A DNA stretch of 61,031 bases from a virus (Duplodnaviria; Caudoviricetes). Under the pieces are notes generated by a model. It made no database searches. It had not been told where the DNA came from and worked only from the letters and a program-made list of their open reading frames with translations. The stretch lies in the IMG/VR virus record IMGVR_UViG_3300006920_000008, positions 1 through 61,031 of that record; one strand, written 5' to 3'. Numbering within the stretch: position 1 is the stretch's first letter; every line of letters begins with the position of its first letter. The position numbers and the translations under genes were made by a program. This document shows positions 3,634 to 60,961 of the stretch, in pieces.

Positions 3634-3906
3634 TTAGAATGGTAAGTCGGCATCAACCTCCTTTGCAGTTTCCTGCTTAGGTGTGTTGTCTGCTTTTGGT
3701 TTAGCCTCCCAAGTATCTAACTCACAATAGTAGTTGCCTCCTTTTGCTCGTTTGATGTCAAGGTTTACCCAACCGTTTTTAGCGTTAGCTTTTAAGAAAG
3801 CTATAGCCTCATCGACTTTAATTGATTGCTTCCCTACTACAAATTCAGGAGCATTGTCGTTTCTCTTAAATGAGAAACCATCTGCAAAAACTTTTTCTTC
3901 TGCCAT
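3634..3906 (-). CDS. putative single-stranded DNA-binding protein
   Basis: 90 aa with acidic DADLPF C-terminus; next to the recombination genes. Confidence 0.6.
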   Translation of the reverse strand: MAEEKVFADGFSFKRNDNAPEFVVGKQSIKVDEAIAFLKANAKNGWVNLDIKRAKGGNYYCELDTWEAKPKADNTPKQETAKEVDADLPF

Positions 3907-3908
3907 TT

Positions 3909-4046
3909 TTAATTGATTTTAATTGTTCGTTCCAAATGATTAATAATTCCGAGGATAACATTATCTTTCTCCCCACGACTGATGCAGTTGATTGGAACTT
4001 CCAACCACATCACTCGCTTTCTTTTTTTAAAGAGTAGCTTCCACAT
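3909..4046 (-). CDS. small hypothetical protein (45 aa)
   Basis: Manual ORF MWKLLFKKRKRVMWLEVP...; fills the gap in the operon. Confidence 0.45.
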   Translation of the reverse strand: MWKLLFKKRKRVMWLEVPINCISRGEKDNVILGIINHLERTIKIN

Positions 4047-7796: not shown

Positions 7797-7830
7797 AAAA
7801 AAAGGATGTGTCTTTGAAGACACACCCCTC
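7797..7830 (-). terminator. intrinsic terminator whose core is palindrome copy 3 (7808-7823)
   Basis: Minus-strand RNA GGGG-UGUGUCUU-CA-AAGACACA-UCCU followed by a U-tract. Confidence 0.75.
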
Positions 7831-7841
7831 GGATTATTAAT

Positions 7842-8921
7842 TTATTGTTTGCTGAAATTTAATATCTCATCTTCCTTAAACCAACCACCACAAGAAGAGC
7901 AGTAGTAGTTGTGAAACATATCGTGTTCAACATCATTGAAACAATCAATACAAGTTGGTGTCTCTGATGTTGGGAAATCATTGTCATCCCAACCGATGTC
8001 TATTGCTTGATGATTCTCAGTTGCATCATAAGTTGGCTGAACATCATCGAAAGTAAAACTTCGCTGAGGATAAACCCTTGTCTGTTTGTACTCACTATGT
8101 AACTCTGTGTCCGGATGAATGTCCTTTGGATTAAAGTATATCCAACAATTCAATGTTCTATTCTTTAGCTTTACCGGTATCTGAACTCTCTTGTACCACT
8201 GCGGATGTCCCTCAAGTTGGTCAACCTTTTTAAGTTGCATATCGCTAACCTTGAATACATCAACCACAACATTGTGACCTACACCTTTTTTGTTTACTAA
8301 GAATGGTAACCCATCAACAATTAAAGGATATTTGTCTTGTGTCTTTCCTCTACCAATGTGCTTTGCATTTGTAAGGTAAGAGTAATAGTTGTTGAATCCT
8401 TTCTTTAATGTTCCATACACCGCAATCAGATTGTCTTGCAATACATTTGCTTTTGAATACCAAATGCCATCACGATATGTATACATATTGCGATTGTAAA
8501 TTTGGAATGAACGAGTACGAACATTTACTGAAACAAATCTTGAATCATACTGCTCAAGATGTGTCTTCCAATTTCTACGATTCATTGAGCCAAGCTGAAT
8601 AGCTAATGCTTTTGAATCACATAACTCTGCACTACCAAGTCCTTTGATTGTTCCATTCATCATAAGGTATTCATCTTTGTTGTTACCACATACAAATGGA
8701 TGAGTGTTTGCTCTGTTGATTGCACCGACTGTTGCATATCTAAAGTGAGCAATGAATGGTCTCTTTGTTATTAGTTTACGATAGTCTTTTGATTTGTGGT
8801 AAGTTACCTCAAAGGTATCTAACCAAATGATTCCTAATCCGTGAGGATTAATTTTTGATGATGTCTTTGCTATCTCTTCAGACATCACATTGTTTTTCTG
8901 TTTAATAATAATTACACACAT
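7842..8921 (-). CDS. class II glutamine amidotransferase fused to gamma-glutamylcyclotransferase (AIG2-like) and a Zn ribbon
   Basis: N-terminal Cys2, HFRYAT.G..NTHPF, NG, DS; VYGTLKKG...DQLEGHP.WY.R; CIDC..CSSC. Confidence 0.85.
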   Translation of the reverse strand: MCVIIIKQKNNVMSEEIAKTSSKINPHGLGIIWLDTFEVTYHKSKDYRKLITKRPFIAHFRYATVGAINRANTHPFVCGNNKDEYLMMNGTIKGLGSAELCDSKALAIQLGSMNRRNWKTHLEQYDSRFVSVNVRTRSFQIYNRNMYTYRDGIWYSKANVLQDNLIAVYGTLKKGFNNYYSYLTNAKHIGRGKTQDKYPLIVDGLPFLVNKKGVGHNVVVDVFKVSDMQLKKVDQLEGHPQWYKRVQIPVKLKNRTLNCWIYFNPKDIHPDTELHSEYKQTRVYPQRSFTFDDVQPTYDATENHQAIDIGWDDNDFPTSETPTCIDCFNDVEHDMFHNYYCSSCGGWFKEDEILNFSKQ

Positions 8922-9017: not shown

Positions 9018-9560
9018 TTAATCTAATAATTCTTTTTTAACTCTTTCCCAATAGATTTCTGTTGACTGCTTCTTGTGTCCTCTTGGTCCACCATTCCATT
9101 TTCTTGCAACGATTTCGAAGAACTCTAATTGAGTCAAACCTAAACAACATTCAACCTCTTCAGCCATTATGTCAAACATATCAATTGACTTCTGTCTGTT
9201 CCATCTGTCATTCATTTCGAACTTGAGATTGACCTTGTGTCCCCTGAGAACCCTGTTTACTTCCCTGACCATTATTGGTCTAATTTGTAGACAACCGACT
9301 GCCTTTTCTTTTTTATGGTATGCCGAATCATTACCTCTTGATTCTACATAGATGACTGCGTTAACGAAATCATCCCAGACAATTTTATGTTCCACTGTTA
9401 CCGGAACTGTGTCTACGGTATTTGCTACGGTGTCTGCTGATTGTAAAAGAAGGGAAGGAATTTCTTCCCTCCCGACTTCTGCAGTTTGTGTCTTTGAAGA
9501 CACATCACTGCCCACATATCCAACCACAGATAATGCTGATAGTAATATAAATTTTTTCAT
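9018..9560 (-). CDS. secreted lysozyme-like/lytic transglycosylase protein
   Basis: Signal-like N-terminus; VESRG, GCLQI, ARKWNGGP motifs. Confidence 0.7.
   Translation of the reverse strand: MKKFILLSALSVVGYVGSDVSSKTQTAEVGREEIPSLLLQSADTVANTVDTVPVTVEHKIVWDDFVNAVIYVESRGNDSAYHKKEKAVGCLQIRPIMVREVNRVLRGHKVNLKFEMNDRWNRQKSIDMFDIMAEEVECCLGLTQLEFFEIVARKWNGGPRGHKKQSTEIYWERVKKELLD
9488..9503. repeat. 16-bp palindromic motif, copy 5 (intragenic, VSSKT)
   Basis: GTGTCTTTGAAGACAC. Confidence 0.95.
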
Positions 9561-9746: not shown

Positions 9747-9914
9747 TCATCTTGATTTTACTGCGTTAAACTTCGCTCTGATTATCCAAGGGAACTTGCT
9801 TATGTTGTCGTTATAAACTCTATCAATTGCTTCCCATTTAGAATGAGCAGGTAAGACTTTAATTAGCTTACCTGCATACCTAACTTTGTAGTAGTGTTGA
9901 ACTTCTCTATGCAT
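9747..9914 (-). CDS. small hypothetical protein (55 aa)
   Basis: Manual ORF MHREVQHYYKVRYAG...; fills the gap. Confidence 0.55.
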   Translation of the reverse strand: MHREVQHYYKVRYAGKLIKVLPAHSKWEAIDRVYNDNISKFPWIIRAKFNAVKSR

Positions 9915-10143
9915 TGTGTCTTTCTTTTATATCAGCTACAATTAAACCTATTGTTGCCCACATACAGAACAACAAGAATGCAAATACAATGAACATTGAC
10001 AATGCACCACTGATGGTCTGTAATAGACTTCTTGCATCGTTAAGTACAATGTGAATTAATAGTCTTCCCACCATTGAGAAAACTCCTAAAGTGATTGCGA
10101 TGTACAGAACTGATTCTGCGTAATTTTTGATTTGATTTTTCAT
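9907..10143 (-). CDS. small membrane protein (2 TM)
   Basis: Two hydrophobic stretches. Confidence 0.65.
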   Translation of the reverse strand: MKNQIKNYAESVLYIAITLGVFSMVGRLLIHIVLNDARSLLQTISGALSMFIVFAFLLFCMWATIGLIVADIKERHNA

Positions 10144-10164
10144 TTTATTATAAATTAAATTAAT

Positions 10165-10222
10165 GCTTCTGTTTCATCCTTTTGGAATCATCAGTCAAGG
10201 TACACACCTTGATACAGAAAGC
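10165..10222 (-). ncRNA. type III hammerhead ribozyme
   Basis: Minus strand GCUUUCUG-UA^UCAAGGU-GUGU-ACCUUGA-CUGAUGA-UUCC-AAAA-GGAU-GAAA-CAGAAGC: conserved core plus three stems. Confidence 0.8.
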
Positions 10223-10252
10223 AGTTTTACATCTTGCTTAGGATATTGTTTG

Positions 10253-11203
10253 TTATGGTCTGTATCCGTTTGTTAACAAATCTCTGTCGTACCATTTCTG
10301 TGCATCTAATCTTCGCATTGGGTCACAGAATGGAATTACATCACGATTCACTTTGTGAGTAAGAATCATCTTGCGGAATGATTTCGCCAAGGAGATTATC
10401 TCAGCCACTTTCGTTTCATCATTGTTGTACATTGACTTCACAATTGGTGTTACTCTTTTAAGGAATGTGTTATGACTTCCGTTAGGATTGTTGATTGAGA
10501 AATCAAGTAACTCATACATCAATTCGTATCTTCTCATCATCTGCTTTACAGATTGGAATCTGCTTGGCAATCTAAACTCGATGCAGTTACCTTTCACAAG
10601 GATAACTTTGTATCTACCACCACCCCACATCATTGAATCTGTTGTGTCTGATGGCATCAATGTCATATTACCTCGGCAGTAAGAATTGTTTAATCTCTTA
10701 CGGAATAAAGACATAATGATTCCGGCATTCTTACGAACTGCTTCGAGCAAATCATCTCCACTCATACCTTGAACTGCGATTGTGATATGTCCACCACAAT
10801 TTGTTGAACTTGGAGAGTATTGGTCCTCGATTACTTTTCTCGCTTCAAACATCATATTGAAAACTTTGTTTCTCCACTTTCCACTTGGTAGTAATGGAAG
10901 AATGTTTGTCACTGCTTCATAGCCACAAGAAGAATCTCTTTCGAATCCGCAAAACAATGGGTATTCTTTCACTGCACCTCTGTGCAATCTGTTCTTCTCT
11001 ACTTCCATTCCGATAGTGAATTTAGAATCGTAGTTACCATCGCCTAAATCGACAAGGTTACGTTTCTGTGAAGACTTCAATGCTTTAATATCTGAAGACT
11101 TTGCACCTTTCGACATATCTCTGAAAGATGGCTTTCTGTGGTAAGAAGACATAACTCCTCTATCTCTTCTACCTTCTGTTGTGTATTGAATTTCTGTACT
11201 CAT
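10253..11203 (-). CDS. putative amidoligase (COOH-NH2 ligase, Amidoligase_2-like)
   Basis: TIGMEVE, ERDSS, YEAVT, CGGHITI, RYK, IEFR; likely start MSTEIQ. Confidence 0.75.
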   Translation of the reverse strand: MSTEIQYTTEGRRDRGVMSSYHRKPSFRDMSKGAKSSDIKALKSSQKRNLVDLGDGNYDSKFTIGMEVEKNRLHRGAVKEYPLFCGFERDSSCGYEAVTNILPLLPSGKWRNKVFNMMFEARKVIEDQYSPSSTNCGGHITIAVQGMSGDDLLEAVRKNAGIIMSLFRKRLNNSYCRGNMTLMPSDTTDSMMWGGGRYKVILVKGNCIEFRLPSRFQSVKQMMRRYELMYELLDFSINNPNGSHNTFLKRVTPIVKSMYNNDETKVAEIISLAKSFRKMILTHKVNRDVIPFCDPMRRLDAQKWYDRDLLTNGYRP

Positions 11204-11223: not shown

Positions 11224-11239
11224 GTGTCTTTGAAGACAC
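11224..11239. repeat. 16-bp palindromic motif, copy 6 (intergenic)
   Basis: GTGTCTTTGAAGACAC about 20 bp upstream of the amidoligase start. Confidence 0.95.
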
Positions 11240-12675: not shown

Positions 12676-12749
12676 TACACCCATCAGGATTCGAACCTGA
12701 GACCTACTCATTAGAAGTGAGTTGTTCTATCCAACTGAACTATGGGTGC
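12676..12749 (-). tRNA. tRNA-Arg (anticodon TCT), CCA not encoded
   Basis: GCACCCA acceptor stem, D-arm AGTTGGATA, anticodon arm ACTCA-CTTCTAA-TGAGT, T-loop GGTTCGAATCC. Confidence 0.93.
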
Positions 12750-13006: not shown

Positions 13007-14602
13007 ATGTCAGAAATAGGATACACACCAAAGAACCTACAATTCGATAGCGAAGGTAGAGACAAACTATTCAAAGGAATAGAACAAATTGCTAAAGCAG
13101 TTAAGTCAACCTTAGGACCTTCCGGTCAAACAGTTCTTATTGAATCACCAAACCACACTAACGGAATTACTGTAACTAAAGACGGAGTGACAGTAGCTAA
13201 AGCAGTTTCACTAATTGACCCAACAGAAAACTTGGCAGTTAAGATAATGAAACAAGCTTCTGAACGAACCGCAACACAAGCAGGAGACGGAACAACTACT
13301 GCTATTGTTTTAACTGAGGCAATTGTAGAAGCAGCCAAACACATTATTAATGACTCTAACAAGACAGATGTTCTTAGGGACTTAATTAAAGAAACGAACT
13401 TGATTGTTTCTAACCTGAAGGCTAAAGCCAAGAAAGTAACTAATAAGATGCTGAAGGATGTAGCCACTATCTCCGCAAACAATGATGAAGAGTTAGGTGA
13501 TATTATAGCATCAGTTTATAAGAAGGTTGGTACAGATGGTATAGTAGCCGTGGATAAATCTCAAACATCAGATACATATTATGAAACCACAAATGGATTA
13601 AAAATTCAAAGAGGTTATGAATCACCATTGTTCGTAAACAATCAAAGGAAGGATGAATGTGTTCTTGAAGACTCTTATGTATTAGTTAGTGATGCACCAA
13701 TTGAAAATATATTAAGTATAGAGAGTATACTTAAACCAATTATACAAGGAAATAAAAAGTTACTAATCATAGCACCAACCTCACAAAACGTAACGAACAC
13801 TTTAGCTGCTAACGTTATGAAGAGTAATTTAAAGTTATGTGCTATAGGTCCACCATCATTCGGATACAAGCAACACGAACTAATGCAAGACATTGCTATT
13901 AGCGTTGGAGCAACTTACTTTAGTGAAAAGACCGGGGATGATTTATCATTGATGACAGAAAAAGATTTGGGTCACTGTGCTAAGGTGATAGTTAGCCGTG
14001 ACTCAACGGTCATCATAAAAGATGATGAAGAGTTAAATGATACCGTAGGGAAAAGAGTAGCGGAACTTAGGGTTGCTATGACAAATGAAAAACGTAAAGA
14101 AGAAAAGGAGTTTATCTTAAGTAGAATCGCAACACTAAATGGTGGTGTCGGTGTAATATACGTTGGTGGTCAAACAGACTTAGAACAAAAAGAATTATAC
14201 GATAGAGTTGATGATGCAGTATGTGCAGTACGTTCAGCTTTAGAGGAAGGCATACTTCCGGGAGGTGGTTCAGCATTAATGCAAGAAGCACACCGCATTG
14301 ATTTCAGTAAAGGTGAAACCACAGTTGCTCAACAAATTTTAGTGAAAGCACTTCGTGCTCCTATGTTTCAGATATGGGAGAACGCAGGTATTAAATATGA
14401 AGGTCAGTATGAAGCTTCAAAAGTAGAATACAATGATGGCTTTGATGTAAAGGAAAGAAGGTGGGGAGATATGTATAAGATGGGAATCATTGACCCACTA
14501 AAGGTAACTAAGTCCGCATTACAAAATGCAGTGTCGGTTGCAGTAACTATTTTATCAACCAATGCTATTATTACAATGGCAAGAACATACGAACAGAAAT
14601 GA
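13007..14602 (+). CDS. groEL: phage chaperonin GroEL
   Basis: TLGPSG, VTKDGVTVA, AGDGTTTA, ATISAN, EEGILPGGG, GIIDP; no GGM tail. Confidence 0.97.
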   Translation: MSEIGYTPKNLQFDSEGRDKLFKGIEQIAKAVKSTLGPSGQTVLIESPNHTNGITVTKDGVTVAKAVSLIDPTENLAVKIMKQASERTATQAGDGTTTAIVLTEAIVEAAKHIINDSNKTDVLRDLIKETNLIVSNLKAKAKKVTNKMLKDVATISANNDEELGDIIASVYKKVGTDGIVAVDKSQTSDTYYETTNGLKIQRGYESPLFVNNQRKDECVLEDSYVLVSDAPIENILSIESILKPIIQGNKKLLIIAPTSQNVTNTLAANVMKSNLKLCAIGPPSFGYKQHELMQDIAISVGATYFSEKTGDDLSLMTEKDLGHCAKVIVSRDSTVIIKDDEELNDTVGKRVAELRVAMTNEKRKEEKEFILSRIATLNGGVGVIYVGGQTDLEQKELYDRVDDAVCAVRSALEEGILPGGGSALMQEAHRIDFSKGETTVAQQILVKALRAPMFQIWENAGIKYEGQYEASKVEYNDGFDVKERRWGDMYKMGIIDPLKVTKSALQNAVSVAVTILSTNAIITMARTYEQK

Positions 14603-48808: not shown

Positions 48809-51800
48809 ATGAATCCATTAGAAGGCAAAACAAAAGAAGAGGTTGAACAACTGTTAAGGGATTACATTACTACGGTTAACAACCCGGTATATAAAGGGAA
48901 TATAGATGTAATAAATTCTAAGTTCCCTGAATTTAGTGGAATAGATGTTCAGGTGTTACAGGACTATATTGCCACTTATAATAATCCGGAATACTCAGGA
49001 AATTACGATGTAATAAATTCTAAGTTTCCTGAATTTTTTGCAGGAGTAAAAAAAAAAAAACAAACACAAGAAGATACGGATTCTTCTTCGGAAGATGGTT
49101 CTTCGGATTTGTCCGACATTCCTGAATTTGACCCAAGTACATTTAATTATGACCCAACCGCACCGGGTGCTCCAAGAGACACAAGAGAAGATGGCTATGT
49201 AAGTCCTATGTCTACCCAAAATATGGGTATGTATCCTGAGCAAAATGTTCTTGAAAGAGCACAAAACCAAATGGCAGCAGACTTTGCTTTTACGACAGAG
49301 CAAAGAAATAAAGATTTACCGGACCTAAGACTACAACAAGAGCAAGAGGCTAAGGCTAAAGAAATAGAAAGAGAGTTAAAGAATGCAGAGATATTAGGTG
49401 TACTACAAGACGAAACTTTTGTAAATGAAATATCACAAATAGATGCTTCTCTTATAGATAAAGAAGAGGAAGAGGTTGTTCCTTTTTTAATAAAGAATTT
49501 TAAAAAATATGGGTTTAGGTTTGTTGAATCAGGCATTGGCGATAACGTTACTGTAACTGCACCTGATGGAAAAACTACAACTACAATTGATTTAGACCCC
49601 TTCACATCTGACGGGGAAAGACAAGGAGCAGATAAACTAAGAAACTTTATAAAAGGAAACCTTGGTGGTGCTGCTAAAAAACCTTTATCGTCTGAAGTTC
49701 AAAAAGCAATCAAAGCAAAAACATTAAGAAAGATTCCTTTAAAAAACGAAGATGGAACAGTATCAACTGTTAGAATGACCTCGTTTGAAGAGGATGGTAA
49801 GCACAAGGTTATACCTATGCTGCATCCTGTTAATCCTGACCACTATACATCAGATGGGATGTGGTGGCATCAAGACTTAAGTTTTGATGAGGCTTTAAAA
49901 TTGGCAAGAGAAAGAGATGAGGTTTTTGAATTCGACACCAAAGAAGAAGCAGAGGCTTTTGCTCAGGGCAGTTGGAAGGATGTGGCTACTGCAGAGGCAG
50001 AGATGGAAAAATACTATGATGAGAGAGGTCTTGATTATTCTACTGAAAGAAAACTTTTATCTGATTATGACGAAGCTAAAGACACAGAAAACTTTTTAAG
50101 TGGTGCTCCGTTTAAACAAGAAGACCTTAGTCCTCAGGACCAAATAAAATATGATAAATTTTATATCAATGGTAGATTAAGGGATGATTCTTATGAACTT
50201 AAAAAGGCTGCTACAAAAAGAAGAGAAGAATTAGCAGATGCATATCTTGATGACGAAGCAATGTATGTTAGGGAAGAAGCAGACCTTTATCTTGAAAAAA
50301 GAAGAAAGGCTACTATTGGGGATGCAATAAAAATAAACGTTGCCGCAAAAGAAGCTGAACAAGCAATTGAAAATAAAAGCTTAAGATATTTTGGTGTGAA
50401 GCCAAGTGAATTAAGTCTTTACGAACCCCAAGACGAAAGAGAGGCTCAGATAAAAAAAGTTATTGAATTAGAGTATGGTGCTCAACAATACAAATCTCAG
50501 ATTGCTGCAGATGCTTATAAAGAAGCTTCAACATACTATGATTTAAAGTACGACAAGTATGCTGAAAAAGAGTATGCTGAAAATTGGGAAGGGTTTCAAG
50601 TAGCCTTAGAGAACGGAACCAATATGGGTAAAGCAGGTGATTTAATTTTAGCTGCTACAATGTACCCGGGGTTTATGGATGGTATTGACCTTGAAGACCC
50701 TGAGTCTACTTCATTAATGGCAGAGAAGATTGTAGACTATATGAATCGAACTTCTGACAAAAGGTCAAGAGTTTTAAATAGATGGGAGAAAGCATCTAAT
50801 ATGGATGAGAATTGGGATGTTATTTTAGACGACCCATTTGAGTGGATGACATCATTAGCAGCACATAGTCTCTCTATGATGTTGCCGTATGGTAAAAAGA
50901 TTATTCCTATATCTATGGCTGCAGGTACAGTTGCAGGTGGAGTTTATGGTAGTGTTGTTCCCGGTGCAGGTACTGCTGCCGGTGCAGCAACAGGATTTAC
51001 TTGGGGTACAAGAACAGGGTTTGCAGCTACTTCATTGGCTATGGAATATACCAACGCAGTTCTTGAGGCTATTACAAATCAAGGATACGATATGACAGAC
51101 CCTGAATCTGTGGCAAAAGCTTTGAATGACGAAAAAGTTTGGGCAGAAGGTAAAGAGCGTGGATTTAAAAGAGGTGTTCCAATTGCTATTGTAGATTTAA
51201 TTACTGCAAAATTAGCAGGTAACCTTATAAGAGTTGGAAGTGTATCAGGAAAAGGAGCGAGAATTGCAGCTTTAACTGCAGAACGTATGATAGCTGACCC
51301 AATTGGTGAAGGCTTTGGCGAACTTGCTGCTCAAATAACAGTTGGTGATGATATAAACATCAAAGAGATAATGGCTGAGATGGGTGGTGCTATGGGTAAC
51401 AACACATCTAATATGGCAATTAATCTTGCACTACAAGCAAGAAGTAGAAACAACTTAGAGTTAGCATCAGCATTTACAGATATAAAGTTTATGTCTGATG
51501 AGTTGTCTTCAGGAACTAAGATTTCTGCTTGGGCAAATAATATGGAACGTCTTGGTCAAATAGATGCTGAGACTAATCAGCGTATACAAATGAACGTTGG
51601 TTTAAGAAAGACTGCAAGGGAACTGTTAAATAACACAGGAGCATTTTCAAGAATTAAAAGAAATGGCGAAGTAGAAACAAGAGTTATGGAACTTCTTGCA
51701 GCTAAGGAGGAAATGTCATCAACACCAAATAGAAAATCAATTTTCAGTAATAAGATTGGTGAAATAAATAAAGAGTTAGAGGACATAATTACTACTCGAA

Positions 51801-54800
51801 AAACAAGACCACTAAACGAGCAAACTATTCTTGCAGGTACAGGTGTTTTTTCTATTGGAGAACAAGCAAACGTTTCTGATGTAAGAGAAGGGTTACCATC
51901 TTATAGAATTAAGAAAAATAGATTTGGAAGATTACAACAAGTTTCTAAAGAAGAGTTTGTTGAATTTATAAATGGACTTAGTCCTAATGAGTTGCTTCGT
52001 ATGAGTGCAACTGTAGATAATGATGATGAGGTATCTAAGTTAGTTTCTCGAAAGTTAGTTGAAGCAAACATTCAAGAAGCAAGAGGTGGTGCTCAAACAA
52101 CTACGGAAACTGAAACAGAGGTAAGAGATACTCCTGAAGCTGAAACAGAGGTAAGCGAAGAGCAAAGTGAAGTTCCTACAGAAACAGGCATTGTTCCTAC
52201 AACAACAGAAGAAGTGTCTTCAAAGACACAAACTGAAGAAACCACTCCGGCATTACCTGAGGGTACTCAAACAACTCCTGCTCTTAATCAAGGTCAAGGT
52301 CAAGCAAGTGTTGGTGTTATAGAAGAAACAAAAGAAACAGAAACCCAACAAGCGGCAGAGGACTTTGAGGCTTCACTAAAAGAAGAGGAATCAGGTAAAA
52401 AACCAAAGGTAGATTTCAGATTAGAGATAGATGAGACTACTGATGAAAATGCAAAACAAGAAGCTGAAGATGAAGTGACCAATGCAATAAACGCAATGGA
52501 AAGTCCAAACGTTGATGTTAAGATTACACCTGATGAAATGACATCAGAAAAGATTGATGTTGATGAACTAAATAGTAGAACAGATAGACCACTGAAGATT
52601 ACTAATCTTAAAGTTGTCAAGGGTGTTCCTACTATGTTTAGTATTACAGACCAACTAACAACAGGAACCGTTACTAATCCTGTTACGGGGAATGTAATTG
52701 AAGACCTTAAGGGTGCGATTGGTTTCAATGGAACTGTAGGCAATGAACAAGCAGCTTGGGCAAATGTGGAAGAGAAAGAGGCTCAGACTATTATAAGTAG
52801 AGCAGAAAAAATCTATCAAGAAAACCAAGAAATATTTAAAGATTTTTGGGCAAAGAATCCTGAGTACAATGGTTTGGTTCCAATGAACATTGTTAAGATG
52901 GGTCAAGATGCTATGCAATCTAACGAAGCAGTTGTAAGAGTGTTAGCAGATAATATAGGTACGTTGCCTAAGAGAAACAGAAAGTCAGCAGTTCGTGTTT
53001 TAAAAACACAGATGAAGGAGGACTTGGTTAAGTTAAAGGCTAAGCCTAAAAAGAACGCTACTGATAAAAAGAATATTAGAAACCTAACTGACCTATTAAA
53101 AAGATTTAGAGAAGGCAAGGTTACAACAATGGACCAAGCACTTACTCCTCAATTTATAGAGAATATGTCTCTACCTATGAGAGCAAAGTTGGTTGGATAC
53201 CTAACCACAGGAGTCATTCAGGAAGCTAAGGGTAAAGAAAAGAAAGTTGGAGGAGTAACTAAAAGCACAAAGGTTACAGTAAAAGAACTTTTGAAAGGTG
53301 TAGAACAGGATGCAGCTAAACTAAACTTGGCTCAGATAACTAATTTACTTACAGACCCACAACTAAAAAACGTACCTATTGGTAACGTTGTTGCGTTGGT
53401 TGGTGTTGATGTTTTAAATCCGGGTATCATAGAAACCACACATCCTAATTACAAATATGGTGTTAGAGGAAAGTCAATTGGTATACTTGAAAATCCACAA
53501 TCAATGGAGACGGTATATCCTAAAGCTTTCGAAAAGATAATGGCTAAGATGATTACCTCTGAATCAAGTGGTAAAAAGTTTGCTGCTAAAACAAAAAGAA
53601 CTCAAACAACAGGTGTGGGGATTGGTGTTCCGGATAAAGATTATATTGGTATTATGGCAACCATCAATCCTGATGAGTCTACCAAACTAAATGCATTTAT
53701 GAACTTAGCGTTCCCGTCTGTAGTAATAAATTCAGACGTAGATACATTCAACAATGTAATGTCTCAAGACAACGTTAGAACATATCTAAGAGGTGATGAA
53801 ATCATTTATGGTGTAACAGTGGATGGAGATATTTATATCAACCCTGAGGTGCACGAAACCAAGTCTTCCTTGTACAATACATCTATACACGAAATGGGTC
53901 ACGTTTGGACAGACTACTTACAGACAACAAAGAAAGGTAGAGAGATTTACAAGAAGGGTGCTGAGGTTGTTCAAGAAACTGAGGAGTTTAAAAAACAACT
54001 TAAAAGATTTGATGGTGATGTAGATAAAGCCACAAGAGAAGCTATGGCTATTCTTATTGGTAATAAAGGTGAGACAATAGTTAATGGTTCTATTAAGTCC
54101 AAGTTCAGCGAATGGTTGATTGGGATGTGGAATTATATCAAGTCTCAATTTAAAATGTCTAAAGACCTGTCAGCAGAAGAAATTCAAAACTTAACACTTG
54201 ATGAATTCTTAGGTACTGCATTAGCAGATATCTTTGCAGGTAAGCCACTGAAGATGACAGAGGCTCAAACAAAAGCTTTAAAAAACCCTGAAGCTATGTT
54301 TAGTTCCGGGATGAGTATAGATAGTATTATTCAGAAAGGAAGAGACCAAGGTATCCCTGATGAATCAATTAGAGTAGTCTTAAAAAACAGAGGCTTTAGT
54401 GCAACTGATATCAACAAGGCAATGGTAGTAAACATAGGATTAAGAGTTCCTATGCCAAGAGTTTTTGGAGATGTGAACGAAGGTGCGAAGGTTGGTTTTA
54501 GATTATTTAATAATGTAAGAACTGCAGTAAATAAATTTGCATTTGACAAGACGGGAAGAATTAAAACTTTTTCTGAGATAAGAGAAAAAGCATTTGATAC
54601 TTTAAAAGCCGACCCAATATTTAAAATTCAAACTGAACAATTACAGAACGAGTTACTTGTTGCATTTGATAGAGCACTTGGTATTAGAGGAAATGCTAAG
54701 GTTGCAAGAGAAATAAATAACATTAAGAAAAATCTTAAGCAAAGAAAGATAAGTGCAGATAATCTTACAGATGCACAAAGAAGAATGAGAATGATTATTC

Positions 54801-57724
54801 GTAAGCTTCTACCTGCAGGTAAGAATTATTCTAAAACAGTAATCAACAGATTACTAAAAACAGTCAACACAACTACACCTAAAAACTTCATAGGTAAAAT
54901 GTCTGAGGTTTTAAAAGAAGTTGAGATTGAAAGAAATAATGAAAAGAACAGAGTAATAAAAGACATCCTAACTATAGTAAAAAAGAAAGCAAGAAAATCT
55001 AAAACATCTTCAGGCAAGGTAAGAGCAGCAGGGTTAGATGCAATAGGTCAAGCCTATTTCTCTCAAGTAAAAGAAGTTTTGGATGCAGTAATGAAACAAG
55101 ACTTCGAAACATTACAGGAATTAGCAGATAGCGTTAGAGACGAAAAGATTACAGAAATACTTCAGAAACAAGAAGAAGGTAAGAAGCTTACATCAAAAGA
55201 AAAGTTACTTCTTGACAGAAGAATTGCAATAGATTCTTTTGCAGACGTTATGACAATGGAACTTGAAGATGTTCAGGAGTTACTCGAAGATGTCAAGAGT
55301 GCAAGGAAAGAATCAATTCAAAGATTAAATAACAGAAAAGAAGAAAGAAGACAGAAAGTAGAAGAAAAACAAAAAGAGTTTAATGAACAAATAAAAGACG
55401 ACTTTGGTCAGCTATATGATGAGAACGGTAATCCACTAAACGATAACGGTCTTGAGAAGAATAAGCAGTTTATTAGAAAAGCATTTAAAGAAAAAGGATT
55501 GTTTGGAGCAGTCACTGCATTCTTTAATCAGTTTAAAGAAAATGGTGTAAAAGATTTAACATCAAATGGTGTAGCTAAGTTTATGCAAAACTATGTTACT
55601 CACTTTAAAACGTTTACTAATATACTTGACGGAAATAAAGACGGAATGTTTACTGAAACATTTTTTAATGTGTTGAACGACTTCGATGAAAGAAATCTTC
55701 AAGGTGTTAGAAGAACCGAAAGTGATATGAATGCTATGACTAATTCTACTCACGGTAAAAAATGGACCGATTGGAAGTATTCATTAGGAACAGATGTTCA
55801 AGAGTTGTCATTTATAGATACAGAAACAGGTAATAGAACCTCAAATGTTTTCAATAAAGACCAAGCAATGAGAATCTATGCGTTGTCTCTAAACCCAATT
55901 CAGGCAGAAAAGTTAGCTAAGATGGAGGTGGATTTAGAATTAGTTAAAAGATTTATTGGTAAAGACAATCAAGAGTTGGTAGAGCAAACTGTAGATTTTT
56001 TAAGTAATAAATATTTTGAAGAGACCAATTCAGTTTACCAACAAGTAAATGATGTTAGTCTTGGTTATGTAGAAAATTACTTTCCTACAAGAACAATTAG
56101 TAAAGGAGCAATCACCAACGATATGATTCTTCAAGGAGAGTTTAACAAGGTGTTTACTGCGGAGTTTTCTCCTGCACTTAAAGAGCGTGTTGATTTAACA
56201 GGAGATGTTTTATTAGGCTTGTCTTTCAGTGAGGTTATGGAGGAGCACGTTAAGGCTATGGAGAAGTACAAGGCATATGCCGTAGGTGTCAAAGAAATGA
56301 ACGCAATACTTCAGGACCAAGGAATACAAAACCTTTTAAACGAAACAGGTTTGAAGCAATTGTTTTCAAGGTCGCTTAATTATGCCATTAATCCTGATTC
56401 GGGACCACAAGTAGAAAGTGCAGATGTGGTTACAAAATTACAATCTTTGTTTACAGGTTTTGCTTTAGCACTAAAATTGGTTCAGATTCCAAAGCAGATG
56501 TCTTCATTTATATTTGCGTGGCAAAAGTATAACGCATTGCCATCAGGTAAATATATTCCGGGGTTAGACACACTTGGGTTTATGAAAGACTATGCTGAGG
56601 TATTGTTGTTCTTAAGAACAAATATTAAGGAAGCAAGAGAGATATCGGCAACTTTTGATAATCGTATCAAGCAAGGTTTAGAAGGTGATGTATTTGGTAT
56701 TGAATCGGGTGGTAGAACTTTTAAGAAAACAAAAGCACAACAAGGTAGAAAGGGTCGTGCTGCAAGAGCATTTACAAAAGTAAAAGGTTTTACTACAGTC
56801 GCAGGGGATATCCTTGGTGTACTCGGATACAAAGCTTTATACAACAGACAAATCAGAAATGGTGTAGATAAAAATGAAGCACTTAGAAATTTCAATGATT
56901 ACAACTCTACTCAGCAATCAAGAAGAGCAACAGAAAAAGTAGGACTTCAGCAAAGCACAGATGCTCTTAACAGAACGTTTACAATGTTTGGTAGTTCTTT
57001 GTTTCTAATGATGAACAATGTTTACCAATCTTCTATGAATGTAACAAGCGACATTATGAAGGGTAAGATGCCTAAGAGAGAACAGATTCGTAAATTGCTT
57101 TTAAATTATTCATTAGCAAACGTTGCGTTTACCGCAGTGTCATACGCACCTGCATTACTTCACGGTAAAGATGGAGAGAAAGATAGAGCGTACAAAGCAT
57201 TGAGAGATGCAGCGTTAGGACTTAACTTAATCTATGCTATACCTATTATGGGTTCTGCAATTGAAACGGCAATAGCATACGCTGAGAAAGATAGAAAGCC
57301 AATCTCTGATGTTGTAAACCCATTAACATCTGTAGTTAGAAAAGTATTCAAGAGTATTAAAGATGTCAGTGGTCCTGATGGGTTAGTTCAAGCAACGAGA
57401 GTGTTGTTAGAAATTTATTCAGGAATGCAACTTGATGCACCAATAGGATTAATAAAGCTTCTCGGAGGCAGTGGTGATTCAGATGATATGTATGATGCAC
57501 TTGGTATCACACCATCTTACAGACCGGGTTATGGGCAAACTAAACCAAAGGGTGAAACTAAAAAGAAATCAACTACTGCAGAAGATAAGAGAGCAATAAA
57601 GGCTATTGACCCTGAGTTGTACGAAGAACTATACGGGAAAGAAAGACCTACATATGGAATCGAGCAGGAGTTAAAACAGATGAAAAAAGAAATAAAAGAT
57701 GAACTTAAAGAGACATATAACTAA
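48809..57724 (+). CDS. giant (2971 aa) polyvalent/ejection protein with a zincin-like HExxH motif
   Basis: IYINP...SIHEMGHVW...EAMA; Gly/Ala-rich membrane-like segment; N-terminal tandem repeat. Confidence 0.75.
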   Translation: MNPLEGKTKEEVEQLLRDYITTVNNPVYKGNIDVINSKFPEFSGIDVQVLQDYIATYNNPEYSGNYDVINSKFPEFFAGVKKKKQTQEDTDSSSEDGSSDLSDIPEFDPSTFNYDPTAPGAPRDTREDGYVSPMSTQNMGMYPEQNVLERAQNQMAADFAFTTEQRNKDLPDLRLQQEQEAKAKEIERELKNAEILGVLQDETFVNEISQIDASLIDKEEEEVVPFLIKNFKKYGFRFVESGIGDNVTVTAPDGKTTTTIDLDPFTSDGERQGADKLRNFIKGNLGGAAKKPLSSEVQKAIKAKTLRKIPLKNEDGTVSTVRMTSFEEDGKHKVIPMLHPVNPDHYTSDGMWWHQDLSFDEALKLARERDEVFEFDTKEEAEAFAQGSWKDVATAEAEMEKYYDERGLDYSTERKLLSDYDEAKDTENFLSGAPFKQEDLSPQDQIKYDKFYINGRLRDDSYELKKAATKRREELADAYLDDEAMYVREEADLYLEKRRKATIGDAIKINVAAKEAEQAIENKSLRYFGVKPSELSLYEPQDEREAQIKKVIELEYGAQQYKSQIAADAYKEASTYYDLKYDKYAEKEYAENWEGFQVALENGTNMGKAGDLILAATMYPGFMDGIDLEDPESTSLMAEKIVDYMNRTSDKRSRVLNRWEKASNMDENWDVILDDPFEWMTSLAAHSLSMMLPYGKKIIPISMAAGTVAGGVYGSVVPGAGTAAGAATGFTWGTRTGFAATSLAMEYTNAVLEAITNQGYDMTDPESVAKALNDEKVWAEGKERGFKRGVPIAIVDLITAKLAGNLIRVGSVSGKGARIAALTAERMIADPIGEGFGELAAQITVGDDINIKEIMAEMGGAMGNNTSNMAINLALQARSRNNLELASAFTDIKFMSDELSSGTKISAWANNMERLGQIDAETNQRIQMNVGLRKTARELLNNTGAFSRIKRNGEVETRVMELLAAKEEMSSTPNRKSIFSNKIGEINKELEDIITTRKTRPLNEQTILAGTGVFSIGEQANVSDVREGLPSYRIKKNRFGRLQQVSKEEFVEFINGLSPNELLRMSATVDNDDEVSKLVSRKLVEANIQEARGGAQTTTETETEVRDTPEAETEVSEEQSEVPTETGIVPTTTEEVSSKTQTEETTPALPEGTQTTPALNQGQGQASVGVIEETKETETQQAAEDFEASLKEEESGKKPKVDFRLEIDETTDENAKQEAEDEVTNAINAMESPNVDVKITPDEMTSEKIDVDELNSRTDRPLKITNLKVVKGVPTMFSITDQLTTGTVTNPVTGNVIEDLKGAIGFNGTVGNEQAAWANVEEKEAQTIISRAEKIYQENQEIFKDFWAKNPEYNGLVPMNIVKMGQDAMQSNEAVVRVLADNIGTLPKRNRKSAVRVLKTQMKEDLVKLKAKPKKNATDKKNIRNLTDLLKRFREGKVTTMDQALTPQFIENMSLPMRAKLVGYLTTGVIQEAKGKEKKVGGVTKSTKVTVKELLKGVEQDAAKLNLAQITNLLTDPQLKNVPIGNVVALVGVDVLNPGIIETTHPNYKYGVRGKSIGILENPQSMETVYPKAFEKIMAKMITSESSGKKFAAKTKRTQTTGVGIGVPDKDYIGIMATINPDESTKLNAFMNLAFPSVVINSDVDTFNNVMSQDNVRTYLRGDEIIYGVTVDGDIYINPEVHETKSSLYNTSIHEMGHVWTDYLQTTKKGREIYKKGAEVVQETEEFKKQLKRFDGDVDKATREAMAILIGNKGETIVNGSIKSKFSEWLIGMWNYIKSQFKMSKDLSAEEIQNLTLDEFLGTALADIFAGKPLKMTEAQTKALKNPEAMFSSGMSIDSIIQKGRDQGIPDESIRVVLKNRGFSATDINKAMVVNIGLRVPMPRVFGDVNEGAKVGFRLFNNVRTAVNKFAFDKTGRIKTFSEIREKAFDTLKADPIFKIQTEQLQNELLVAFDRALGIRGNAKVAREINNIKKNLKQRKISADNLTDAQRRMRMIIRKLLPAGKNYSKTVINRLLKTVNTTTPKNFIGKMSEVLKEVEIERNNEKNRVIKDILTIVKKKARKSKTSSGKVRAAGLDAIGQAYFSQVKEVLDAVMKQDFETLQELADSVRDEKITEILQKQEEGKKLTSKEKLLLDRRIAIDSFADVMTMELEDVQELLEDVKSARKESIQRLNNRKEERRQKVEEKQKEFNEQIKDDFGQLYDENGNPLNDNGLEKNKQFIRKAFKEKGLFGAVTAFFNQFKENGVKDLTSNGVAKFMQNYVTHFKTFTNILDGNKDGMFTETFFNVLNDFDERNLQGVRRTESDMNAMTNSTHGKKWTDWKYSLGTDVQELSFIDTETGNRTSNVFNKDQAMRIYALSLNPIQAEKLAKMEVDLELVKRFIGKDNQELVEQTVDFLSNKYFEETNSVYQQVNDVSLGYVENYFPTRTISKGAITNDMILQGEFNKVFTAEFSPALKERVDLTGDVLLGLSFSEVMEEHVKAMEKYKAYAVGVKEMNAILQDQGIQNLLNETGLKQLFSRSLNYAINPDSGPQVESADVVTKLQSLFTGFALALKLVQIPKQMSSFIFAWQKYNALPSGKYIPGLDTLGFMKDYAEVLLFLRTNIKEAREISATFDNRIKQGLEGDVFGIESGGRTFKKTKAQQGRKGRAARAFTKVKGFTTVAGDILGVLGYKALYNRQIRNGVDKNEALRNFNDYNSTQQSRRATEKVGLQQSTDALNRTFTMFGSSLFLMMNNVYQSSMNVTSDIMKGKMPKREQIRKLLLNYSLANVAFTAVSYAPALLHGKDGEKDRAYKALRDAALGLNLIYAIPIMGSAIETAIAYAEKDRKPISDVVNPLTSVVRKVFKSIKDVSGPDGLVQATRVLLEIYSGMQLDAPIGLIKLLGGSGDSDDMYDALGITPSYRPGYGQTKPKGETKKKSTTAEDKRAIKAIDPELYEELYGKERPTYGIEQELKQMKKEIKDELKETYN
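52214..52229. repeat. 16-bp palindromic motif, copy 11 (VSSKT in a low-complexity linker)
   Basis: GTGTCTTCAAAGACAC. Confidence 0.95.
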
Positions 57725-60302: not shown

Positions 60303-60961
60303 ATTATCTTTTTAAAATGATTTACTGTAAAGTCCTTCTTCTTTGATACTGCTTTATAAATATCTTTTTCTATTCCACCCTTAGCGAATATCCAATACAC
60401 ATCTGATTCCAATCTATCTTTAGTTGTCATTCTATCTCTTGACTGCCAATAGCTTGTAGCACTAAAGTCTATGTTATAATATACAAGTGCCTTTGCTTTT
60501 CGTAAGGATATACCCTCACGACCTGATACAATTTGTAAGGCTATAGACTTACTTGTGTCTTCAAAGACACTGAGTTCTGTACACAGTTGGTCCCCGTATA
60601 TCTTCTTAAGTGCGTTCAGTTCTTCTTTAAACTTATAGAAGATACCAATCTTTACATCTGCAAAGTTGTCGTGTATGAATTGTGCTTTTGAATAATCTAT
60701 AATTGTTGAGTTGCCTGACTCAAACTTAATGGTCCCTGAGTACAATTGATGAAGCTTCATCATAAGCTTTACGGGAGTGTCTCCAAGTATAACTTCTTCC
60801 TTCCCTTCTACTACCCTATGTTTTTTTAATTGAGCCGTAAGCTTCTTTGTAATTGGCTCAACATCTACCTCAAGTATGTGTTCACGGGTATCTACCTTAA
60901 ACCCTGCCTCTTTTTGTGAGTAAGAAATAGTATATGGTTTCATCTCATCAATAATCTTTTG
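60299..60961 (-). CDS. SF2 helicase, C-terminal part (joins 774-1; about 478 aa in total)
   Basis: KLHQLYSG, SGREGISL (motif V), YWQSRDR (motif VI). Confidence 0.9.
   Translation of the reverse strand, partial: QKIIDEMKPYTISYSQKEAGFKVDTREHILEVDVEPITKKLTAQLKKHRVVEGKEEVILGDTPVKLMMKLHQLYSGTIKFESGNSTIIDYSKAQFIHDNFADVKIGIFYKFKEELNALKKIYGDQLCTELSVFEDTSKSIALQIVSGREGISLRKAKALVYYNIDFSATSYWQSRDRMTTKDRLESDVYWIFAKGGIEKDIYKAVSKKKDFTVNHFKKII
60555..60570. repeat. 16-bp palindromic motif, copy 12 (encodes VFEDT in the helicase)
   Basis: GTGTCTTCAAAGACAC on +. Confidence 0.95.

Follow-up and report, generated by a model that had tools for sequence, protein, structure and literature searches.

What does a self-cleaving RNA do between two genes of a phage transcription block? 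The question is raised by a complete viral record of 61,031 bp with direct terminal repeats (IMG/VR record IMGVR_UViG_3300006920_000008; Duplodnaviria, Caudoviricetes), the whole of which is called here the window. On its minus strand, between a gene for a 316-amino acid (aa) protein and a gene for a 78-aa protein, lies a 55-nt element with the sequence and predicted fold of a type III hammerhead ribozyme. We have very little doubt that this element is a real, selected hammerhead; judged from its sequence, it is highly probable that it cuts itself in vivo, and segmenting or maturing messenger RNA (mRNA) is the main purpose that we moderately favour for the cut.

Anatomy and conservation of the hammerhead

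The anatomy and coordinates given in the original prediction, including the cut expected between 10213 and 10212, proved correct when read on the minus strand (Table 1). Three helices meet at a junction, helices I and II being closed by loops and helix III open, as seen in the sequence, the folds and the Rfam structure alignment. The core of the window copy is canonical throughout (C3 U4 G5 A6 U7 G8 A9, G12 A13 A14, A15.1-U16.1 and H17 = A); the 15.1-16.1 pair is formed by A10172 and U10214, and A10213 is the non-G nucleotide at cleavage position 17. All five pairs previously listed for stem III are present, but the stem actually has seven, and the G10.1-C11.1 pair that normally closes helix II is absent, U10187 and U10176 standing in its place. 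Hammerhead cleavage leaves a 2',3'-cyclic phosphate on one side and a 5'-OH on the other; here the cut is predicted to leave the former on A17 (10213) and the latter on U1.1 (10212).

The Rfam hammerhead search that had been proposed as a check returned RF00008 (Hammerhead_3) at 34.8 bits over model positions 1-54 of 54, with E = 3.1e-6 when a stretch of 201 nt was searched and E = 9.4e-4 when both strands of all 61 kb were searched with 4227 families, a search in which it ranked third among the matches of the window. This score is below the RF00008 gathering cut-off of 48.5 bits, and for that reason a default Rfam scan of the window reports only a transfer RNA (tRNA). The minimum-free-energy fold of 69 nt shows all three hammerhead stems (z = -2.67), and they are retained in the fold of a 161-nt context, in which the leader up to the ATG is unpaired.

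The element was compared with those of 38 related IMG/VR loci, found by a back-translated search with the upstream protein and 48-98% identical to it, which together with the window make a set of 39 genomes of phages of about 60 kb. A hammerhead stands at the orthologous intergenic site, no more than 60 nt after the stop codon of the upstream gene, in 32 of the 39 (the window and 31 relatives). A relaxed descriptor scan of the related loci gave 50 matches, and when both strands were scanned all 47 hammerheads of the relatives (47/47) lay on the coding strand, like that of the window, one extra match being spurious. Forty-one distinct hammerhead sequences, that of the window included, were collected in a nearly gapless alignment (A1). 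Its GAAAC segment is invariant, the columns of the core strand vary little or not at all, and in much of both loops conservation is complete or reaches 90% or more. The stems, by contrast, vary, and the whole pattern is what a catalytic fold with a loop-loop contact would lead one to expect; no loop-loop pairing or known motif could be assigned to the conserved sequences of loops I and II.

Covariation in homologous intergenic regions, also named beforehand as a check, was found, stems I and II covarying strongly around a fixed core. The covariation score of A1 was 0.625 against 0.218 in shuffled alignments, none of 500 of which reached 0.625, and fell to 0.08-0.13 when the pairing partners were slid. 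Paired cells amounted to 89.1% against 69.1% in shuffles, and to 99.7% in stem I; the sequences were chosen by a scan that requires pairing, which biases the percentage paired, but not the diversity of pair types. Changes on both sides were seen in six of seven pairs of stem I, three of four of stem II and two of seven of stem III, the two outermost pairs of which are not real in this alignment, and the U-A pair at 15.1-16.1 is present in all 41 sequences. In the nearest genome (L002, 4020-4074), whose upstream protein is 98% identical, four stem I pairs differ from those of the window (10166-10220) by two-sided changes and one U-A pair has additionally become U-G; turnover of stem I this fast, unusual between such close relatives, suggests exchange among the ribozyme copies and not stepwise mutation.

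A covariance model built from A1 (R1) identifies the element as the sole hammerhead of the window, at 74.4 bits with the next match at 10.4 bits (filters off). Applied to the whole records, it found 64 hammerheads in 33 of the 38, with 1-5 per carrying record spaced 0.4-3.4 kb apart, a count that holds partly by construction, A1 having been drawn from the same loci, although several matches fall outside the stretches scanned earlier; across genomes the copy number thus runs from 0 to 5. The RF00008 scores of the relatives range from 34.2 to 50.1 bits, and only two hammerheads, both in L028 (50.1 and 49.5), reach the cut-off. In all, at least 130 distinct sequences of the family were found, and routine annotation misses it because nearly all of its members score under that cut-off.

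One cultured phage carries the element. The genome of Flavobacterium phage vB_FspP_elemoA_7-9A includes just one canonical type III hammerhead, absent from its annotation (NC_055852.1, 19083-19139, minus strand; L179:1501-1557), with 42 bits in R1, the core CUGAAGA and G-C at 10.1/11.1; it lies in a divergent intergenic region, 13-20 nt upstream of gp62, the first gene of the leftward block. R1 found none in MW202828.1, Cellulophaga phi38:1, phi18:3, Calle_3 and Tenacibaculum Gundel_1 (0/5, or 1/6 when elemoA_7-9A is counted). Comparison of the window with GenBank phages gave no match by megablast and a single 212-nt match by blastn.

Other RNA modules at the hammerhead sites

The seven genomes of the set whose orthologous site lacks a hammerhead have other RNA modules there: a tRNA-like element in five of the 39 (L016, L017, L023, L027 and L038) and a third motif in two (L010 and L014). 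Immediately before the same gene there is another such site, with a hammerhead in two loci and a tRNA-like element in five.

The tRNA-like element is a minihelix of 42-48 nt made of a 7-bp acceptor-like stem, a linker of 10-16 nt that usually begins with UGG, and a 5-bp T stem with a T loop of the UUCGAGU type (UUCGANU); the D and anticodon arms are absent. Both stems vary among copies, yet stay paired. Fifteen examples were obtained by an anchored scan of the relatives, on which the results for this element rest, since a MAFFT alignment (A4) misplaced the 5' strands and was left unused. A strict scan of the coding strand gave 27 matches, 16 within true tRNAs and 11 in tRNA-like elements, against none on the other strand and 0-1 in shuffles. 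ARAGORN called none of the elements as a tRNA, and in a search of seven loci neither they nor the third motif matched an Rfam family at E <= 1. Bacterial RNase P recognises that part of a tRNA in which the acceptor stem stacks on the T arm, and we therefore infer that the minihelices are probably processing sites cut by the host, as substrates of RNase P/Z.

In the third motif three pairs of the 7-bp stem covary, the 10-nt loop never varies and the 3' tail is conserved; an ATG follows after 10-40 nt. A scan of the viral collection placed it in five of 70 matching stretches, L010 and L014 among them; the others held one unrelated repeated family and scattered matches in coding sequence, at about chance level. 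A model of the motif (R2), run on 100 sources, returned the two known copies and one weak match (L164:14433-14488). It is a candidate for a nuclease signal or a new ribozyme.

Two unlike modules, both putative cutting devices, occupy the same two sites, and this swap is, as far as sequences can tell, the best evidence here that selection maintains the cut as such. The mRNA-processing role gains indirect support from the constant placement and from the replacement of the ribozyme by the tRNA-like element in five of the 39 genomes. More tentatively, at somewhat less than an even chance, all three unrelated modules may be interchangeable at the same sites and the purpose of phage hammerheads may be a site-specific cut that punctuates mRNA.

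Table 1. Features of the window and RNA modules of related loci (L numbers), with their coordinates.
Feature	Position	Strand	Basis or remark
Complete type III hammerhead ribozyme, 55 nt	10166..10220	minus	sequence, Rfam RF00008, covariance model R1, folds
Stem III, 7 pairs	10220-10214 with 10172-10166	minus	includes A15.1-U16.1 and a terminal U-G
Cleavage triplet GUA	10215-10213	minus	sequence
Predicted scissile bond	between 10213 and 10212	minus	GUA position relative to stems III and I
Stem-loop I	10195..10212	minus	7 bp and GUGU loop
Stem I, 7 bp	10212-10206 with 10201-10195	minus	loop GUGU at 10205-10202
Core strand CUGAUGA (C3-A9)	10194-10188	minus	sequence
Stem-loop II	10176..10187	minus	U10.1/U11.1 mispair, 3 bp, AAAA loop; sequence
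U10.1 and U11.1	10187 and 10176	minus	mispair at base of stem II
Stem II, 3 bp	10186-10184 with 10179-10177	minus	loop AAAA at 10183-10180
GAA (G12 A13 A14)	10175-10173	minus	followed by 3' strand of stem III, from A15.1 down to 10166
Upstream gene, 316 aa	10253..11203	minus	probable start ATG 11203; also called as 328 aa from GTG 11239
Downstream gene, 78 aa	9907..10143	minus	hydrophobic; ATG 69 nt past predicted cut
tRNA-Arg(TCT)	12676..12749	minus	Rfam tRNA 71.2 bits; near start of leftward block
Terminator-like hairpin with T-run	9452..9473	minus	consensus scan only; downstream of three small genes
Hairpin repeat copies, 16 nt each	3618, 4910, 7808, 8943, 9488, 11224, 12098, 16160, 28969, 36106, 52214, 60555		
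Hairpin repeat copy in annotated start of upstream gene	11224..11239	minus	
tRNA-like copies, L016 to L023	L016:2840-2885, 3961-4005; L017:2907-2949, 3891-3935; L018:2912-2959; L023:4013-4054		
tRNA-like copies, L024 to L030	L024:2938-2980; L027:2929-2970; L028:4942-4983; L030:2537-2579		
tRNA-like copies, L031 to L038	L031:4642-4684; L032:4647-4689; L034:3318-3360; L038:3947-3989		
Third motif, five examples	L010:3957-4017; L014:3954-4014; L087:1379-1439; L103:2187-2247; L105:133-193		

Gene context and the role of the cut

The leftward block runs from a divergent region at about 12.8-13.0 kb through the tRNA-Arg, small open reading frames (ORFs), a 214-aa gene and the 316-aa gene to the ribozyme, after which come small genes of 78, 55 and 62 aa and the terminator-like hairpin; further along lie a lysozyme-like gene, a glutamine amidotransferase/gamma-glutamyl cyclotransferase fusion and a primase/helicase. 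That this block is early, as had been assumed, is plausible from its gene content. The stop codon of the upstream gene lies 37 nt before the GUA and 41 nt before the predicted cut; its true start is probably the ATG at 11203 and not the GTG at 11239, which falls within a hairpin repeat. The product, earlier labelled an amidoligase, had no match in Pfam and PHROG searches, and in its language-model neighbour cluster 12% of the members carry PF12224; the label is thus plausible but unproven, and the protein possibly a distant amidoligase. The membrane-protein label of the downstream gene held up, its hydrophobic 78-aa product being consistent with a small membrane protein, and the leader between cut and ATG, put at about 70 nt, measures 69 nt by coordinates; the part of it between the ribozyme and the ATG, about 22 nt, is AU-rich and unstructured. 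An orthologous tRNA-Arg(TCT) was called by ARAGORN in 12 of the 38 related loci, and this tRNA would be a second, host-processed cut point of the same presumed transcript, and the RNA segment that begins at the ribozyme cut probably ends at the terminator-like hairpin.

This placement recurs in the family. For 51 of 53 hammerheads the GUH comes 25-57 nt after the end of an ORF of 50 aa or more, and at the orthologous site the next ATG usually lies 65-74 nt past the cut, behind a leader with about 20 nt after the ribozyme, AU-rich and without a Shine-Dalgarno-like sequence. Leaders poor in Shine-Dalgarno sequences are a trait of Bacteroidota, and the leader fits a host of that phylum. A naive test has 19 of the 53 hammerheads overlapping an ORF; we suspect that most such overlaps are artefacts, caused by the ATG within the core CUGAUGA or by other spurious ATG ORFs of at least 50 aa, and placement was judged by the distance to the upstream stop and not by ORF overlap. 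The terminase of this aquatic phage is 46.6% identical to that of Elemovirus (Flavobacterium phages) and about 37% to those of Cellulophaga phages, and the hammerhead family is a lineage-specific, compact one (about 50-55 nt), common in Elemovirus-like podophages of about 60 kb.

Elsewhere in the window, a GroEL-like chaperonin is encoded at 13007-14602 on the plus strand (PHROG 5725, E = 6e-132), and the fusion gene of the leftward block (7842-8921, minus strand) joins a class II glutamine amidotransferase fragment to a gamma-glutamyl cyclotransferase domain (PF06094, E = 2.5e-21). The structural block contains a 2971-aa ORF (48809-57724, plus strand) that has no PHROG match at E <= 1e-5 and only sub-threshold Pfam matches (E 0.032 and 3.7); by analogy, its size recalls the giant proteins packaged in the virions of other podophages.

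A 16-nt palindromic hairpin repeat is scattered over the window in 12 copies, against 0.27 expected. Its loop reads alike in the local gene direction in 11 of the 12, that at 60555 being the exception; the copies at 7808 and 36106 form part of longer terminators with T-runs, and several fall within ORFs, that of 2971 aa among them. In the relatives the repeat usually stands 5-15 nt upstream of a hammerhead or tRNA-like element, whereas in the window no copy stands directly upstream of the hammerhead. The variant found in MW202828.1 carries a compensatory change in its stem. The repeat may act as a promoter or terminator signal of the phage, bind a protein, or serve recombination.

In the mechanism that we propose, the leftward block would be transcribed from the divergent region near 12.8-13.0 kb, and the ribozyme would fold co-transcriptionally and cut itself after A10213. 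The upstream mRNA would be left with a 2',3'-cyclic phosphate end 41 nt past its stop codon, and the downstream mRNA would start with a 5'-OH and carry, in this order, stem-loops I and II, the unstructured AU-rich leader and the ATG at 10143. The cut would thus act as a punctuation mark of the mRNA, allowing separate stability and translation of its two segments. From motif, conservation, covariation, strand, placement and replacement by other RNA modules, all of which are observed, we infer the cleavage, the polycistronic transcript and the effect of the cut, and the chain as a whole, from a genuine hammerhead through to the punctuation role, seems likely to us.

Several observations weigh against this reading. 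The Rfam score is under the gathering cut-off, and stem II has only 3 bp besides its mispair; a short stem II with a mispair lowers the rate of minimal ribozymes. One relative (L004, 4009-4063) has A9 changed to U with the rest intact, so this copy may be impaired, or the change may be a sequencing error, and not every hammerhead copy need be active. Many of the 38 records are closely related, and the genome counts overstate the number of independent events. MW202828.1, a closer relative (TerL 75.6% identical), has at a rearranged site the hairpin repeat only, the hammerhead being absent, and the position of the hammerhead of elemoA_7-9A fits trimming of a 5' leader better than separation of cistrons. 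A promoter of the Bacteroidota type may lie between the stop codon and the ribozyme. Lastly, the metatranscriptome contigs, which are assembled and come from relatives 90-95% identical, cover no part of 9900-10256; two of them, from two studies, end at 10257 and 10263, close to the stop codon rather than at the predicted cut.

The strongest of the alternatives, which we nevertheless hold to be unlikely, places a separate promoter just upstream, perhaps tied to the hairpin repeat, and has the ribozyme trim a triphosphorylated leader as an insulator that gives the mRNA a structured 5'-OH end. The location of the only hammerhead of elemoA_7-9A, in the divergent region before the first leftward gene, speaks for it, as do the tightly maintained spacing between ribozyme and ATG and the fact that 16 of the 32 carrying genomes have the hairpin repeat immediately ahead of the hammerhead, 11-14 nt past the stop. 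In the window, however, only 37 nt separate the stop (10253) from the ribozyme, and they hold neither a hairpin repeat nor a sigma-70-like site, although the sigma-70 scan (15 sites against 14.4 expected from shuffles) uses a consensus that leaves out promoters of the Bacteroidota type. Some copies of the repeat are, moreover, plainly terminators and others lie within ORFs, and the tRNA-like replacement is compatible with trimming as well as with segmentation of the mRNA.

Still less probable, in our judgement, is that the hammerhead or tRNA-like element belongs to a mobile cassette, travelling with the small downstream genes and serving the autonomy of the cassette and its spread by repeat recombination with no programmed role in the operon. 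The window ribozyme comes closer to hammerheads that lie 2.5-3.5 kb further downstream in other genomes (80% identity to L011_6481, with 10 of 14 stem I positions in common) than to the same-site copies of its closer relatives L003-L005 (71-73%, 7 of 14 stem I positions). The double changes at four stem I pairs in the nearest genome, the variable copy number and the repeated hairpins that flank the modules point the same way. Comparisons over 55 nt are nonetheless too short to prove transfer, and the fact that none of the 39 genomes leaves the site empty argues for a role under selection there; a cassette would in any case be compatible with mRNA processing and not opposed to it.

The U-U mispair and the 3-bp stem II raise a further alternative, that catalysis was disabled and the element persists as an inactive relic or structural RNA, a stabilising cluster of hairpins. 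The low Rfam score and the core change of L004 could be read in this sense, and so could the statement that no stem pair of hammerheads is more conserved than 10.1-11.1 (in the portion of Perreault et al. 2011, PMC3088659, available to us). The original prediction had called U-U at these positions unusual; it is present, but it is not new, since the same portion of that paper reports natural hammerheads whose stem II begins with a U10.1-U11.1 mismatch, describes the mispair as active, and cites earlier mutagenesis in which U-U was the most active and best-tolerated mispair at 10.1/11.1. It is also recurrent here. In A1 the 10.1/11.1 state is G-C in 31 sequences and U/U in 10, with no other mispair. 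The exact pattern of the U-U subtype matches 67 stretches of viral contigs, where well under one would be expected by chance, and in these R1 found 115 hammerheads, 90 of them distinct and 51 of the 90 U/U; the 51 have 44 different stem-loops I, all fully paired. This second set (A2) has a covariation score of 0.640 against 0.196, in an alignment fitted to R1 and with some contigs overlapping the first set, and six of seven pairs of stem III show double changes in it. No core nucleotide has been lost from the window copy or from 40 of 41 distinct relatives, and a relic would not hold 13 unpaired core positions fixed. We therefore regard a relic as very improbable, and U10.1/U11.1 is, on these sequences, a recurrent, stable and selected subtype and not a defect.

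The nucleotide at cleavage position 17 differs between the two states: U/U goes with A (8 of 10 sequences of A1 and 43 of 51 of the second set), and G-C with C (25 of 31 in A1). Shared descent or functional coupling could account for this.

Chance resemblance to the hammerhead consensus, conceivable for a short motif in an AT-rich genome, we count as refuted by the E-value of 9.4e-4 in the window and by the orthologous same-site copies with compensatory changes in 31 other genomes.

Known systems and significance

With other type III hammerheads (RF00008, clan CL00010) the present family shares the junction open at stem III, the CUGANGA and GAAA segments, A15.1-U16.1, a non-G17 and a match over the full model. 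It differs in its compactness (55 nt), in a stem II of 3-4 bp with an NAAA tetraloop and in a conserved loop I (UGWGU), and the window copy in having U10.1/U11.1.

RNA structures that divide transcripts are known from other systems. In T7 early mRNA, RNase III sites are intergenic structures at which a polycistronic transcript is cut into segments with structured ends; there a host protein enzyme acts on a double-stranded hairpin, whereas here the RNA would cut itself and leave 5'-OH and cyclic phosphate ends. In mitochondrial tRNA punctuation, and with the t-elements of plant mitochondria, tRNA or tRNA-like structures between coding regions are cut sites of RNase P/Z. The tRNA-like minihelices of five of the 39 genomes and the upstream tRNA-Arg of the window match this arrangement, except that the phage minihelices (42-48 nt) lack the D and anticodon arms and that their cleavage is putative. 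Synthetic insulators of the RiboJ type consist of a type III hammerhead upstream of a coding region, which removes the upstream context and leaves a hairpin-capped 5'-OH leader; RiboJ is engineered, and the natural element would be an evolved counterpart. The phage hammerhead clusters published in 2011 are reportedly largely type II.

The idea of mRNA self-processing is the same as that published for phage hammerheads in 2011. In the portion of that paper available to us (Perreault et al. 2011, PMC3088659), hundreds of bacterial hammerheads are described near prophage genes and in clusters that flank genes, three clusters being shown to cleave in vitro and one in E. coli, and long phage transcripts are proposed to be processed into shorter mRNAs. 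The clusters compared here (the ardA triplet of A. tumefaciens, C. scindens, PaP3, Bcep176 and haloviruses HF1/HF2) share with the present family an intergenic position on the coding strand, several copies per few kb and the flanking of single genes or short blocks. The lineage shows such clustering, with 1-5 hammerheads in each of 33 out of 38 records, the window itself having one. The lineage is a different one, that of podophages of Flavobacteriia, and that portion of the 2011 paper does not mention a tRNA-like swap at one site, although its supplementary alignments may already list members of the family. According to the accessible text of a 2019 review (PMC6765202), the purpose of phage hammerheads still needs defining. 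Our literature search found no paper linking hammerheads with Elemovirus or Flavobacterium phages and, in titles and abstracts, nothing on a hammerhead/tRNA-like swap in phages. What is new here is the replacement at hammerhead sites by a tRNA-like minihelix or the third motif; the U-U pair is not.

The analysis adds a large hammerhead family that had not been flagged before, in which the U10.1/U11.1 form is a selected variant, and the copy of elemoA_7-9A offers a cultured entry point that makes bench testing possible. If the modules are functionally equivalent, the third motif would represent either a new kind of RNA that cleaves itself or a new signal by which a nuclease is recruited. The lineage itself provides a natural comparative experiment, in which a fixed site holds either a ribozyme or a tRNA-like substrate of a host nuclease, and which points to the cut itself as the function that selection would maintain in these phages.

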